Source of the DNA: an uncultured Clostridia bacterium
GTDB taxonomy: Bacteria > Bacillota > Clostridia > Christensenellales > UBA1242
Reading direction: 5' to 3'
DNA: 64,000 bases
NCBI GenBank assembly: GCA_947625515.1
Contig: CANQOO010000002.1
Coordinates: forward strand, 22,238 to 86,237
The translations under genes were made by a program, and so were the position numbers. The notes under the pieces were generated by a model, which was given only the letters and a program-made list of their open reading frames with translations, did not search any database and was not told the DNA's origin. Position 1 is the first letter of the stretch, and every line of letters begins with the position of its first letter. Positions 10,951 through 63,729 of this stretch are shown one piece after another.

Positions 10951-12699
10951 ATGGCTGAAAAAGTTGCAACAAAAACAAAAATCTTGCAGACAGTCGGCTT
11001 TATTGCACTGCTGCTTTTGTTGGCGGGAGCTTCGATTGGCATCACCTGGGCAGCACTGACTGGCAGTGTAAAGACGTCATTCACTGTCAGCTACACCGCC
11101 CGCAACGTGTATGCGGTTGTTTCGGGTGCATACATCCAAGGTTCTGGCGGCGGTGAGTCGCTTGGGGCGGACTTGCAGTTTTCTGGCAAAGAAGCCTCGG
11201 GCATTGAGAAGTCCTTCACCACCAAGCCGAAAATAGAACTTGACGGGCCGGACGATTATGTTGAGTTTCACTACACAATCAAAAACCTCAGCACCACGGA
11301 TGGCTTCGGCGTTCAGGTTCAGGTGACCGGATTTGAGGACGCCAACATCCGAGTCAGATATTCTTCTTACAGCCGTGCCACCACGGACGAAGCGACAGCA
11401 CAATTTCACTGCATCAGGCCGGCACTGACAAATCTCTATGTCACCCCGCAAGGCAGCGAAAAATCAGTTTTGGACATTGGAATCCGTGTGTCGATTGACG
11501 ACCCAAACAATGACGTCAGCGGCGTCGGCAAGTGCAACATTTTCATGGACGGCACTGCGGAAGAAACAGTTGGCGACCTGTTTGACCCATATTCCCAAAG
11601 TTTTGATGAATACAACGTCAACAAAGTCCTTCAACAAGTCTCTGGCGACGCAAATGCCAACATTTCCAACATGACCGCCATAACTGACCTTGCCACCAAC
11701 ACTGCCACATCTGCGGACATCATTGCAAACTACAACAAACTGCAAACAGCGAACGCCGACGGCTATTCCGTCTCCGCCAACAGTTATGACGCAGAGATAA
11801 TCATCGAACTTGGAGACCTTTTGTGGACGCCAGTCTATCTTTCCAAATCCACAACTGGCGACACCATCCTCACCCTTTGGCTGGTGGACAACCAGCAACC
11901 CGCATGGGCAAACAGAAAAGCGGATGAAGGGCAATACTATGGCTTCATTGACGGGGCATTATATGGTGATTGGTCCGCAAATTGGTATAAAAGCAAACCT
12001 GAATCAACAGAACCGTATCGGTCAAATATGTATGGGACATCTTATATTAGATCTGTTATATTGAACAATGGCGGCATGTATGTAACTTCTGGCACAGCCG
12101 ATGCCACCTCTTCACAGAGCGAAAGCAATGTGTTTGCACTCTTTACGATGGAAAAATTTGGCTTAACAAAATTTCTTGTGACGCCTGAACATGTAGCTTG
12201 GCAAGAAAGTGGACAAACTGCAAAGCAATTTGGTGCAACTTACAATCCCACAAATCAAAATTGGGGAGGCCCAGATAAAGTCCCAGATGATGATTTTTAT
12301 GAAAACTATGCTGGCAAAGAAGGCAATGACACATGGAAGAACGATTATCTTTGGCTGCCATCTCTTTCTGAAACTGGTAGCAACGAGACTACAAATGGCA
12401 TATGGGGAGCTACAGCGTCTCAAAAAGCACTTAATTACAGAGAAGTAGATAAATCATCGGGTGGTTTAGCCAATACAAATAAGCATGTGGGCAAAGGCAG
12501 CACTGAAACGTATCTAGCCCACCATTGGACTTGGCTTCGATCCGGGACCGTCGGTGCTAACAATGGTGCGGTCTGCTTTTTGAATGAAACTGGCAAATGG
12601 ACTCTCTCTGGCACTTTTAACGCCCACTATTCTTGTGCTATTCGACCTGCATTTCACCTCAATTTGACCAAAATTATCCAAGAGTTTACAAAAGCGTAA
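10951..12699 (+). CDS. secreted/surface protein, paralog of 62303-63523
   Basis: Start moved to MAEKVATK (AAGGAG RBS). N-terminal anchor ending GITWAALTGS (TasA/SipW-type-like). C-terminus with WLPSLSETG, WLRSG, AIRPAFHLNL (recalls DUF6273, unverified). Confidence 0.7.
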   Translation: MAEKVATKTKILQTVGFIALLLLLAGASIGITWAALTGSVKTSFTVSYTARNVYAVVSGAYIQGSGGGESLGADLQFSGKEASGIEKSFTTKPKIELDGPDDYVEFHYTIKNLSTTDGFGVQVQVTGFEDANIRVRYSSYSRATTDEATAQFHCIRPALTNLYVTPQGSEKSVLDIGIRVSIDDPNNDVSGVGKCNIFMDGTAEETVGDLFDPYSQSFDEYNVNKVLQQVSGDANANISNMTAITDLATNTATSADIIANYNKLQTANADGYSVSANSYDAEIIIELGDLLWTPVYLSKSTTGDTILTLWLVDNQQPAWANRKADEGQYYGFIDGALYGDWSANWYKSKPESTEPYRSNMYGTSYIRSVILNNGGMYVTSGTADATSSQSESNVFALFTMEKFGLTKFLVTPEHVAWQESGQTAKQFGATYNPTNQNWGGPDKVPDDDFYENYAGKEGNDTWKNDYLWLPSLSETGSNETTNGIWGATASQKALNYREVDKSSGGLANTNKHVGKGSTETYLAHHWTWLRSGTVGANNGAVCFLNETGKWTLSGTFNAHYSCAIRPAFHLNLTKIIQEFTKA

Positions 12700-43950: not shown

Positions 43951-43982
43951 ATCATAGCACGGCTGGGGGGGGGATTTGTCAA
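43951..43982 (-). promoter_or_regulatory. promoter cassette TTGACA-aat-C9-agccg-TGcTATGAT (20-nt spacer)
   Basis: Minus-strand -35 at 43977-43982, C9 tract 43965-43973, extended -10 at 43951-43959. Same cassette as 48800-48830. Confidence 0.6.
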
Positions 43983-48799: not shown

Positions 48800-48830
48800 A
48801 TTCTATCACTTCGGGGGGGGGATTTGTCAA
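48800..48830 (-). promoter_or_regulatory. promoter cassette TTGACA-aat-C9-gaag-TGaTAGAAT (19-nt spacer)
   Basis: Minus-strand -35 at 48825-48830, C9 tract 48813-48821, extended -10 at 48800-48808. Confidence 0.6.
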
Positions 48831-60449: not shown

Positions 60450-62150
60450 ATGAAACTTGAAAATGGCATTGACCTGGACAAAATCGTTCCAGAAAATGAA
60501 TTGGAAGAAGAAATTATTGCAGACTTAAAAGAAGGTCGCTCGAAAGAAGTGGTCACCCGCTGCCCGCCAGAGCCGAGTGGCTATTGGTATATTGGTCACG
60601 CCAAGGCTTGGACAATCAACTTTGAGACAGCACAAAAATTTGGCGGCAGGACAGTTTTGAGAATGGACGACTCCAACCCGACCAAAGAGGAGGGTGAATT
60701 TGCGGACAGTTATATGGCGGACCTGGAATGGCTGGGCTTTAAGCCGTGCAAATTTGTGTATGCTAGCGAGGAATATTTTGACGAAATCTACAAAATCGCC
60801 GAGAAAATGATTCAAAACGGCGATGCATATGTCTGCGACCTCTCCGCCGAAGAAGTTTCTGCCTCCCGCGGCACTTTGACCGAGCCTGGCAAAGAAAGCC
60901 CGTATCGCAACCGCACCCCAGAGGAGAATTTGCGTCTTTTCCGCGAGATGCGGGACGGAAAATATCCTGATGGCAGCAAAACGCTGCGTGCAAAAATTGA
61001 CATGGCTCATCCAAACATCAACATGCGTGACCCAGTCATGTATAAAATCGCCCGCCAGCATCACTATCGCGTTGGAGACAAGTGGTGCATTTGGCCGCAA
61101 TACGATTTTGTCCACCCGATGGAGGACTGTTTGGAAGGCACCACTTACAGTTTGTGCGACAAAGGTTTTCAAGACCACCGAATTGTGTATGAATGGTTTG
61201 TTCAGCACGGCTGGGGCAAAAAATATGCCCCAAAACAGCGGGAATTTTCCCGAATTGTCCTGGAAAATGTTTTGACCGGGAAAAGATATTTAAAACAGCT
61301 TGTAAAGGGCGGATATGTGAGCGGCTGGGACGACCCACGCTTCCCAACACTTGTTGGAGTGCGTCGCCGCGGCTACACCGCCAAGGCCATCAAGGATTTT
61401 GTCAAGTCCGTTGGCTGGGGCAGCACAATTGAGGTTGTGGTGCCATATTCCGCACTTGAATATTATGTGCGAGAGGACCTCAACCGCATTGCCACGCGTG
61501 CCATGGTGGTTCTTAATCCACTTAAAGTTGTCATCACAAACTTCAACGGCAAGCCGGAAGAAATTGAAATTGAAAACAATCCAAATGACGAGTCTGCCGG
61601 CAAGCACATGGCACTTTTCGGCCGCGAAATTTTCATTGAGCAAGACGACTTTTCACTCAACCCTCCGCCAAAATATAACAGGCTTGTTGAGGGCGGAATT
61701 GTGAGATTGAAAGGTGCCTACATCATCAAGTGCAACAAGGTTATTTTTGCCGAAAATGGCGAAATCGACCACCTGGAATGCGAATATCTTCCGGACACAA
61801 AAAGTGGAAACGACACCTCCGGCATCAAGTGCAAAGGCACCATCCATTTTGTGGCAAAAGAAAATTGTTTTGAAGTGACGATCAGGGAATTCAAGAACCT
61901 TATCAAGGCGGAATATAAAACACCAGCAAAAGATTTGGCGGACGGGACCCCAATTGAAGAAATGCTGGAAGAAAATTCGCTGCAAGAAAGCACCGCCCTT
62001 GCCGAAAACTTCCTCAAATCTGCAAAACCAGAAGACAAATTCCAGTTTATGCGAAAGGGCTATTATTGCGTTGACAAAGACAGCACCCCTGACCACATGA
62101 TTTTCAACAGCACCATCAGTCTGAAAGACGGCTTCAAAAGCGGAAAATAA
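60450..62150 (+). CDS. glnS: glutamine--tRNA ligase
   Basis: 566 aa. PEPSGYWYIGHAKA (HIGH region), FSRIVLENVLTGKRYL in place of FSRLNLEYTVMSKRKL, GlnRS-type C-terminal barrels. Confidence 0.8.
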   Translation: MKLENGIDLDKIVPENELEEEIIADLKEGRSKEVVTRCPPEPSGYWYIGHAKAWTINFETAQKFGGRTVLRMDDSNPTKEEGEFADSYMADLEWLGFKPCKFVYASEEYFDEIYKIAEKMIQNGDAYVCDLSAEEVSASRGTLTEPGKESPYRNRTPEENLRLFREMRDGKYPDGSKTLRAKIDMAHPNINMRDPVMYKIARQHHYRVGDKWCIWPQYDFVHPMEDCLEGTTYSLCDKGFQDHRIVYEWFVQHGWGKKYAPKQREFSRIVLENVLTGKRYLKQLVKGGYVSGWDDPRFPTLVGVRRRGYTAKAIKDFVKSVGWGSTIEVVVPYSALEYYVREDLNRIATRAMVVLNPLKVVITNFNGKPEEIEIENNPNDESAGKHMALFGREIFIEQDDFSLNPPPKYNRLVEGGIVRLKGAYIIKCNKVIFAENGEIDHLECEYLPDTKSGNDTSGIKCKGTIHFVAKENCFEVTIREFKNLIKAEYKTPAKDLADGTPIEEMLEENSLQESTALAENFLKSAKPEDKFQFMRKGYYCVDKDSTPDHMIFNSTISLKDGFKSGK

Positions 62151-62213
62151 ATAGAAAAATTTATAAAACTTGCAAAAAATGTGCAAAATTCTCTGCCTAA
62201 AAATAAAAAATGT

Positions 62214-62248
62214 GCAAAAAAAATCTCTGCCAAGCAGAGATTTTTTCT
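62214..62248. terminator. bidirectional terminator
   Basis: AAAAAAAATCTCTGC-CAA-GCAGAGATTTTTTC. Confidence 0.75.
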
Positions 62249-62302
62249 TTCAAAATAAAAAATTGTCTCAATTTTTGTTATATTTCAAATTTATTCATTT
62301 TC

Positions 62303-63523
62303 CTATTTATTTAGGCTCTTTGCCACTGCCGTCAAGTTGAGGTGAAGTGCCGGACGGACGGCAGAGGTGCTGCTAACATTAATGCTAGGATGATCGCCGC
62401 CTTCCGCACTGAGGTCGCAAGCATAAGTTGACCCCGTGGAAGGAGCCGAACGCAACCAATAAATGTCGGAATTTGCTCGTTGATTTACTGACACCATCCA
62501 AAGGCTCTTGCCACCATGTCCCGTTTCAGACAGCGATGGGATCCAAAGTCTATCATCCGCCCATGCGTCGTTTTTAGCCTTTTTAGCGTAGTTATAATCA
62601 CCGCTGTAGAAGCCCTCGTCTGTCACTTCACTCGACCAAGCGTCATTAGAGATGTTATTCCAATATTTGGCAGAATCTATTGCGGACTGAAACTCCTGCC
62701 AAGCCACTTGCCTTGGAGTGACAATGAAGTCTGAAATCTCGTTATAATAAACGCCATCTGTCATTGTGAATTTGGCGAACACGCTTTGTTCATTTTGAAC
62801 ATAGTTCACCAACTCGGAATTTGCGGAGCCAGTTTTGTTGGAATATAGCCCTCCATTGTTTAACACGACCGCGTGCATATATGAAGCACCATAGAGATTG
62901 TCCGGTACTTCCGCAGCCCTTGACGCAGTAGCATTTGGGGCAAAGCCACTGCTCCAAGTGGAAGTTCCATTTTCATCAAATGTTTTCCCGTCGGCATATG
63001 TTTCTCCGCTCAGTTGCGAGGAATCCGTCAGCCAAAGGGTGAGAATCACGTCGTGCGGCTCGTTGTCTTTCCCCTCGTTTGTGGTGGAAAGAAAGACCGG
63101 CGTCCATTTAAGCCCGCCCAGCTCCACAATAATTTCCGCATCATAACTCTTGGCAGAGACGGAATAATTGTCGTCCGCAGATGCGGGGTTCACCTTGTTG
63201 TAGTTTGCAATTATGTCCTCCGAGGTCATCCTTGTTGTTGCAAGGGTTTCAATCGGTGCCATGTTGTCCACCGTCGCTGTGCTGTCGCCTGAAATGTTCC
63301 ACAACAGTTTGTTGACATTGCTCTTGTCAAAAACTTGTGACACACTGTCCCATAGGTCCTGCGAAATGTCATAGATAACAGAAAAGCCGCCCTCAATGCC
63401 AGTCGAAAGAGCAGCCAAAACTATGTTGGTCATTGTGCATGCAATAACAAAAAGAAAAAGACAAACAAAGCCGGTGTATTTCAGCTTGTCAAATATACCC
63501 CCCCCCGCAAATTTACGCCTCAT
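62303..63523 (-). CDS. secreted/surface protein, paralog of 10951-12699, with G9 tract in codons 6-9
   Basis: 406 aa, AAAGGAG RBS. Shared blocks DIIANYNK, SYDAEII.ELG.L.WTPV.LS, ILTLWL.D, WIPSLSETG, WLRS, AVRPALHLNL. Confidence 0.75.
   Translation of the reverse strand: MRRKFAGGGIFDKLKYTGFVCLFLFVIACTMTNIVLAALSTGIEGGFSVIYDISQDLWDSVSQVFDKSNVNKLLWNISGDSTATVDNMAPIETLATTRMTSEDIIANYNKVNPASADDNYSVSAKSYDAEIIVELGGLKWTPVFLSTTNEGKDNEPHDVILTLWLTDSSQLSGETYADGKTFDENGTSTWSSGFAPNATASRAAEVPDNLYGASYMHAVVLNNGGLYSNKTGSANSELVNYVQNEQSVFAKFTMTDGVYYNEISDFIVTPRQVAWQEFQSAIDSAKYWNNISNDAWSSEVTDEGFYSGDYNYAKKAKNDAWADDRLWIPSLSETGHGGKSLWMVSVNQRANSDIYWLRSAPSTGSTYACDLSAEGGDHPSINVSSTSAVRPALHLNLTAVAKSLNK
63498..63506 (-). repeat. 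G9 (coding strand) homopolymer inside the 5-prime end of CDS 62303-63523
   Basis: ATG AGG CGT AAA TTT GCG GGG GGG GGT ATA; C9 on the + strand. Confidence 0.95.
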
Positions 63524-63642
63524 TTTTGTTTCTCCTTTTTCTTCATACTATTTTCGCTCAAATTTTGAATTTGATGACATTTTATTAATATTTTTAAAAC
63601 AATGTGTTTGTTTAAAATATCAATTTATATAACTTCTTTCTT

Positions 63643-63671
63643 ATTATCTCAAAAAAACTTATTTTTGTCAA
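63643..63671 (-). promoter_or_regulatory. promoter TTGACA-17-GATAAT for 62303-63523
   Basis: Minus-strand -35 at 63666-63671, -10 at 63643-63648. Confidence 0.5.
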
Positions 63672-63729
63672 GCAAAAATTTCGGCGATAATGAAAAAAGT
63701 CGCCGGTGGCGGAAAATTGTGCATTTTTG

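Follow-up and report, generated by a model that had tools for sequence, protein, structure and literature searches.

A run of nine G residues is found within the first codons of a gene predicted to encode an exported protein in the genome of an uncultured rabbit-gut Clostridia bacterium, which raises the question of whether this homopolymer acts as a translational phase-variation switch, as had been proposed in a sequence-only reading of the locus. The window analysed here is a stretch of 64,000 nt (C2:22238-86237) belonging to a 1.11-Mb, 11-contig assembly with 42% GC. Positions refer to this window unless they are given as contig:position.

Organization of the tract-bearing gene

The tract is located on the minus strand, the plus strand reading C9, and extends from position 3 of codon 6 to position 2 of codon 9 in a gene that begins with ATG AGG CGT AAA TTT GCG GGG GGG GGT ATA. 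The features of the locus are listed in Table 1. Re-reading of the minus-strand sequence confirmed the position in codons 6-9 that had been ascribed to the tract, as well as the presence of a good RBS and of a TTGACA-17-GATAAT promoter, whose TTGACA box occupies 63671-63666 and whose TG-n-GATAAT ends at 63643. The same promoter block precedes several paralogs of the 406-aa gene (see below). With a promoter, an RBS and a terminator surrounding the ORF, this constitutes a complete monocistronic gene.

Table 1. Features of the 406-aa gene and of its surroundings (window coordinates)
Feature	Position	Strand	Remarks
Candidate switch tract, G9	63498..63506	-	ON (in frame) at 9
CDS, 406-aa exported or membrane-anchored protein (predicted)	62303..63523	-	C-terminal part related to DUF6273
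Shine-Dalgarno AGGAG	63532..63536	-	8 nt before ATG
Sigma-70-type promoter TTGACA-17 nt-GATAAT, extended -10 TG	63643..63671	-	consensus scan
Hydrophobic helix, residues 17-40	63404..63475	-	AF2 secondary structure and sequence
Met31, first canonical in-frame start after the tract	63431..63433	-	mid-helix, without Shine-Dalgarno
Intrinsic terminator hairpin	62216..62248	-	common to the 406-aa gene and convergent glnS
glnS	60450..62150		convergent with the 406-aa gene
Whole gene cassette (terminator, CDS, leader, promoter)	~62151..63712		approximate

The effect of tract length on the reading frame was computed: with G9 translation proceeds over 406 aa, G8 leaves an ORF of 13 codons and G10 one of 11. 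A change of one G would thus truncate the product before its signal anchor, in agreement with what had been anticipated from the sequence. The helix formed by residues 17-40, encoded 3' of the tract, is the only hydrophobic helix of the 406-aa protein in the AlphaFold model and, on the basis of this model, most likely corresponds to a signal anchor or to the h-region of a long signal peptide. Since Met31 falls inside this helix and is devoid of a Shine-Dalgarno sequence, an out-of-frame tract cannot give an exportable protein. Gene callers fall back on Met31 in the case of an out-of-frame tract, as illustrated by the 376-aa product called on a contig carrying G8 (see below), and copies called from Met31 also occur in the annotation of the present genome (93% query coverage).

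Genome-wide distribution of G/C runs

The G/C runs of the whole genome were counted and compared with the numbers expected under a third-order Markov model of this genome. Runs of 5 nt were observed 318 times (398 expected), those of 6 nt twice (76 expected), of 7 nt once (14 expected) and of 8 nt four times (2.8 expected), after which the numbers rise to 26 runs of 9 nt (1.0 expected), six of 10 nt (0.2 expected) and three of 11 nt (0 expected). Overall, 39 runs of 8-11 nt were found vs. ca. 4 expected, 35 of which reach 9 nt or more (ca. 1.2 expected), so that runs of 6-7 nt are depleted (3 vs. ca. 90 expected) and runs of 9-11 nt are enriched more than 20-fold. Selection that favours hypermutable tracts in limited number gives rise to such bimodal run lengths. 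The window itself contains no G/C run of 6-8 nt and three of 9 nt (43965-43973, 48813-48821 and 63498-63506), for an expectation at this length of ca. 1 per 1.11 Mb or ca. 0.07 per 64 kb; the three G9/C9 runs that had been noticed there are therefore the only G/C runs longer than 5 nt in this stretch.

The tracts fall into 16 that are located in paralogs of the 406-aa gene, ca. 15 that occupy promoter spacers and at least four that are intragenic in other genes, ca. 40% of them thus belonging to one paralogous family and ca. 40% to promoter spacers. In all 20 intragenic cases, the G residues lie on the coding strand. The ca. 15 promoter tracts correspond to sense-strand poly-C situated between the TTGACA box and the -10 box, and they precede genes for lipoproteins, for membrane-anchored proteins and for four long (ca. 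600-aa) relatives of the same superfamily. Promoters of envelope-protein genes are the usual target class of such tracts, and this counts toward phase variation. The MutS (928 bits) and MutL (534 bits) genes are both present and uninterrupted, indicating that no repair defect boosts slippage in this organism, a point that weighs against phase variation.

Several further observations concern individual tracts. The two other runs of the window are sense poly-C on the minus strand and lie in the TTGACA/-10 spacer upstream of a membrane-protein gene (43965-43973) and of a lipoprotein gene (48813-48821), with 20 and 19 nt, respectively, between TTGACA and the -10 hexamer. Most poly-C promoters of the genome have such a spacer of 19-20 nt, clearly longer than the optimal 17 nt, and would be weak as assembled unless carried by an extended -10 (TGn). 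In the ca. 600-aa relatives, the coding tract is absent and a C9-C11 run is found in the promoter spacer (C3:2135-2144, C3:82988-82998, C10:2168-2177 and C10:15407-15415); together with the coding poly-G of the short copies, this reveals two repeat mechanisms within one superfamily. The promoter block TTGACAAAAAT-Cn-GCTAAAATGGGGGTAGGTGTGC occurs in four identical copies before TasA/camelysin-like genes (C1:61754, C1:79129, C2:25 and C9:25866, with n = 9, 9, 10 and 11, respectively), the two longer tracts (n = 10 and 11) being at contig ends where lengths are less reliable. Finally, one of the intragenic tracts in other genes, a G9 run that is in frame as assembled, was detected at C10:13099-13107, immediately after the codon for the lipobox cysteine (LLGC-GGGG) in the gene for a 779-aa lipoprotein.

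A family of 16 tract-bearing paralogs

The 406-aa gene is one of 16 paralogs that carry an uninterrupted run of G8 to G10 at the same codons. GGG accounts for 16% of Gly codons, yet none of the 16 family tracts is interrupted. The context is conserved as AGGAG-N8-ATG-[AGA/AAG]-[CGT/CGA/CAT]-AAA-TT[C/T]-G[C/T]G-Gn, with a GGAG core preceding the ATG in every copy and a full AGGAG in 15 of the 16. The sequence-only reading had set the gene against a 582-aa paralog (10951-12699) devoid of the tract; this paralog indeed lacks it, but the impression of a near-unique case did not hold, as 15 other paralogs bear a tract.

Six of the 16 copies are in frame, namely C1:125663 (G10), C1:298218 (G9), C1:299971 (G9), C2:85735 (G9, the 406-aa gene), C5:21882 (G9) and C9:836 (G10). 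The remaining 10, among them the tandem copies C5:77077, 78798 and 80515 (all G9), are one G away from being in frame, and each of the 10 displays a single open frame of 390-470 codons past the tract, one being cut by a contig end. The bases that follow the tract vary from copy to copy (ATTTTT, TATATTT, TTTT or AGATTTTT), so that the in-frame length is 10 for most copies and 9 for the 406-aa gene, where the tract is followed by TATATTT. At the modal length of G9, the frames as assembled would make the 406-aa gene "default ON" and most other copies "default OFF". When compared to the tandem copies of C5, to which it is alike in family and tract position, the 406-aa gene differs in being a singleton and in being in frame at G9 (TATATTT and not ATTTTT). 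It is also the sole copy of the family for which tract length was found to differ between samples (see below). Within the genome, three pairs of paralogs have 40-nt flanks that are at least 90% identical; all three are G9/G9, with no length difference, and hence bring no added support for slippage.

Tract length at the 406-aa locus in other sample assemblies

The exact 406-aa product is on record only in its own genome. The 376-aa product starting at Met31 is on record in the ENA assembly ERZ27249389 (NODE_7618), in which the contig carries G8 instead of G9 and differs from C2 by one or two substitutions over 4.8 kb. In a further assembly, ERZ27249684, a contig found via the divergent neighbour gene (NODE_15621) also carries G8 and has no other difference over 2,757 nt, while a second contig, spanning glnS and most of the 406-aa gene, is 100% identical over 4,248 nt; in ERZ27249684, ca. 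7 kb thus display no difference besides G8. Both G8 contigs are consensus sequences only, with a low k-mer coverage (ca. 2.5-2.7x). A gap of 17 nt was observed in the glnS gene of NODE_7618 (L111:4062), corresponding to C2:84093-84109 or ca. 61856-61872 of the window. This gap would frameshift an essential gene and is probably an assembly error, which serves as a warning on the quality of this contig; NODE_15621 is free of any defect of this type.

As a control, six other tracts of the family (L112, two in L113, two in L114, and L137) were compared in three sample assemblies, ERZ27249389, ERZ27249684 and ERZ27249395, and all have the same length as in the present genome, indicating that the G8/G9 difference does not result from a systematic shortening of homopolymers. 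As read from these assemblies, the simplest interpretation would be that one and the same strain has the 406-aa gene ON in the source sample and OFF in two further samples, so that the tract appears not to be fixed at 9, albeit on the basis of low-coverage consensus contigs. Because the six other tracts, including out-of-frame ones, are unchanged between samples, switching would be too slow to randomise states between hosts.

A second candidate for an ON/OFF difference (449 vs. 419 aa) was provided by L137 (ERZ27249389, P0070), which turned out to be a mosaic having the front of C1:298218 and the body of C9:10311. It is thus either a recombinant or an assembly chimera and was not counted; the same applies to L113 (ERZ27249395), which joins C9:10311 with the 77-78 kb region of C5 and thereby combines two paralogs in one contig. 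These joins reflect either real recombination or short-read chimeras formed at the ca. 380-nt conserved 5' region. In JGI metagenomes, a search with the family-wide pattern allowing any tract length gave no match.

The predicted product

Residues 322-396 of the 406-aa protein match Pfam DUF6273 (PF19789) with 21.4 bits (E = 2.6e-4), below the gathering threshold of 23.5, and the 582-aa paralog is above it with 26.9 bits. The 406-aa protein is homologous to DUF6273-bearing proteins without itself being a scoring member. No NCBIfam model matched its N-terminus or the whole protein, and a SipW/TasA-type signal peptide was discarded as no NCBIfam SipW-cognate model was matched. The AF2 model, based on a 50-sequence alignment, is confident, with a pLDDT of 84.8 and a pTM of 0.83. 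Its best match in the PDB, the IgA peptidase of Thomasclavelia ramosa (9qa6), is weak (E = 5e-3, TM 0.25), as are matches to C-type-lectin-like domains (Lcl, MBP-C and langerin; E of at least 0.24). The product may be exported and bind a ligand, possibly in a lectin-like manner.

Phylogenetic distribution and recent insertion

The glnS gene places the genome within Candidatus Caccovivens, with rabbit-gut ("Lapin") MAGs as closest relatives. In the nearest sister species (L031), whose glnS has 85% nt identity, glnS is directly followed by a homolog of the gene found beyond the 406-aa gene in the window, meaning that the whole cassette (Table 1) is missing at this site (L031:4098-4116). Among 41 glnS-linked loci of related species, none has a homolog of the 406-aa gene beside glnS. 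The comparison of strains and orthologs that had been suggested earlier was therefore informative at the level of the strain, with the same-strain G8 in two assemblies, but not at that of the species, as the sister species has no ortholog.

A search of 153 further Caccovivens species did not recover the N-terminal module that bears the tract, the few pattern matches obtained in them being promoters or unrelated genes. The 300 C-terminal residues have relatives in a few Caccovivens species and in another family of the order. The confinement of the N-terminal module, together with the missing cassette in the sister species, indicates that the 16-copy family is a recent, species-level expansion and that the 406-aa copy is a recent insertion. 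The borders of the cassette share an AAAA(A)TGTGC motif; a possible target-site duplication (AAAAATGTGC) was considered there as a trace of transposition and rejected, since the motif is common in the intergenic DNA of the genome.

Runs of at least nine G were detected in 50 of the 61 species sampled from the genus and, at the level of the order, in 34 of 51 genomes, these being raw counts irrespective of base composition and GC content, respectively. On such counts, this group of gut Clostridia as a whole may commonly carry poly-G contingency loci. In a few genomes of the order (G192, G180, G175 and G200), raw counts exceed 50 overlapping 9-mer matches. In another Caccovivens species (L120, on G144:C32), two adjacent small genes start with M-x-K-K-Y-A/V, followed by G9 at the same codon positions; these genes have the same design as the 406-aa gene and belong to a different family.

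Proposed mechanism and alternative explanations

The anatomy of the gene, the enrichment of long G/C runs, the mixed frames of the paralogs and the G8 vs. G9 difference between samples all support the translational phase variation that had been put forward for this locus, and it is very probable, judging from these sequence features, that the G9 tract functions as a slipped-strand (simple-sequence-repeat) switch acting at the level of translation. The homopolymer would gain or lose one G during replication. At G9, the ribosome starting from the conserved ATG would read MRRKFAGGGI... into the membrane or signal helix and produce the 406-aa exported protein, which in this ON state would probably be glycan- or ligand-binding; at G8 or G10, translation would terminate after 11-13 codons and leave no exportable product. 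Since each of the 16 paralogs has its own tract, a population could display changing combinations of surface proteins. We infer that cells of a population may switch often and reversibly between both states, that the 406-aa protein is presumably exposed at the surface, and that the benefit may be escape from host antibody or phage, or niche variation. By analogy with the contingency tracts of Campylobacter, the length peak at 9 and the location of poly-G on the coding strand further argue for a switch.

An explanation that would dispense with DNA variation is that tract length is effectively fixed and that out-of-frame copies are served by recoding, through RNA-polymerase slippage or a -1/+1 frameshift on GGG GGG GGG, the tract then being a constitutive attenuator. 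As is generally known of slippery sites, tRNA-Gly can re-pair perfectly in any frame on a run of G codons, and the fact that eight of the 10 out-of-frame paralogs share the same G9 followed by ATTTTT, as well as the equal lengths of comparable out-of-frame tracts between samples, would fit with this scheme. Recoding may contribute some leakiness; as an explanation of the tract it is nevertheless unlikely, because the DNA length differs at the 406-aa locus between identical strains and is either G9 or G10 among paralogs of the same flank type, and because the 406-aa copy, being in frame, needs no recoding; moreover, folding of the sequence around the tract gives no sign of a stimulatory RNA structure (z = -0.93) and a nearby 6-bp hairpin is broken in four of the 16 paralogs. 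We regard as still less probable that there is no biological variation at all, in which case the G8/G9 difference and the spread over 8, 9 and 10 would be sequencing or assembly errors in homopolymers and the tract a Gly-Gly-Gly linker inherited through duplication. Two independent sample assemblies agree on G8, and six other tracts in three sample assemblies agree with the present genome, which has to be set against the low coverage of both G8 contigs and the suspicious 17-nt glnS gap in one of them. Likewise, the 5' regions of the paralogs are homogenised and their tracts could be conserved by descent, but the descent of one family cannot account for the bimodal lengths and for ca. 15 unrelated promoter tracts, and runs of at least nine G are found again in 50 of 61 Caccovivens species.

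Finally, the out-of-frame copies could be pseudogenes of a decaying family and the G8 alleles non-reverting losses of function, as the proportion of out-of-frame copies (10 of 16) and the small, reduced genome (1.1 Mb) might suggest. This is very improbable given that all 10 out-of-frame copies have kept a frame of 390-470 codons, the RBS and the ATG, their sole lesion being a one-base change of the tract. Phase variation by slippage thus remains by far the preferred interpretation.

Significance for gut commensals

Homopolymer phase variation is textbook knowledge in mucosal pathogens and, to our knowledge, has barely been documented in gut commensal Firmicutes; our literature search found no mention of phase variation in Caccovivens. 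The mechanism is therefore familiar, and the organism and the gene family are new, as are the genome-wide tract census, the "default ON" copy, its recent insertion and a first between-sample difference in tract length in the family. A broader model, to which we give even chances, is that an uncultured, mismatch-repair-proficient group of gut Clostridia (Caccovivens) may possess a poly-G "phasome" of ca. 40 loci, comprising a lectin-like superfamily with 16 coding and four promoter tracts, in which indels flanking the tracts set the default ON or OFF state at an equilibrium length of G9, long G runs extending beyond the genus to many more families of the order. If this is true, contingency-locus biology on the scale known from pathogens would be general in a large group of commensals that inhabit the guts of herbivores and humans. 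As a practical consequence of the tracts described here, many genes that appear "frameshifted" or truncated at the N-terminus in MAGs of this group would be switchable genes and not pseudogenes. Strain-level metagenomics could read ON/OFF states directly off reads, and the 16-copy family is a candidate for pressure exerted by host IgA or by phages.

Comparison with known phase-variable systems

Campylobacter are Gram-negative pathogens that are not known to possess MutS/MutL-type mismatch repair. The phasome of C. jejuni and C. coli is the closest functional analogue of the present system, with tracts of 8-11 nt peaking at 9 that turn genes ON or OFF by frameshift and that number in the tens per small genome, chiefly within genes for surface structures. 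It differs in that MutS and MutL are intact here, that the target proteins are unrelated and that, in the present genome, ca. 40% of tracts belong to one family and ca. 40% to promoter spacers. In Campylobacter, G9 represents 53% and G10 26% of the tracts, 95% of which are poly-G on the coding strand, and C. jejuni has a median of ca. 20 tracts per genome (PMC6321876).

From an ecological point of view, the closest analogue is Bifidobacterium breve UCC2003, a Gram-positive gut commensal in which sortase-dependent pilus genes contain intragenic G-tracts that turn this surface structure on and off by replication slippage (PMC9187656). Switching was measured there by error-controlled deep sequencing (PMC9187656), whereas here it is deduced from assemblies. 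The B. breve system relates to two pilus loci in a high-GC actinobacterium, as opposed to a 16-copy family plus promoter tracts in Clostridia with 42% GC.

The opa genes of Neisseria form a multicopy family of surface proteins whose members each possess a separate repeat tract in the region encoding the signal peptide and switch independently. The family described here resembles them in its multiple copies, in the location of the tract in a region coding for an export signal and in signs of recombination or mosaicism between copies, and differs in that the opa repeat is the pentanucleotide CTCTT and the Opa proteins are outer-membrane beta-barrels, having no sequence or fold relationship with the 406-aa family. 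Finally, homopolymer switches are known in Mycoplasma, with poly-A in the vlp promoters of M. hyorhinis and in the 5' coding region of vaa in M. hominis. As in these small-genome, host-associated, wall-reduced organisms of Firmicute type, homopolymers occur here both in promoters and in 5' coding regions of surface-protein families; the Mycoplasma tracts are, however, poly-A/T instead of poly-G/C, and the proteins concerned are lipoproteins of unrelated families.
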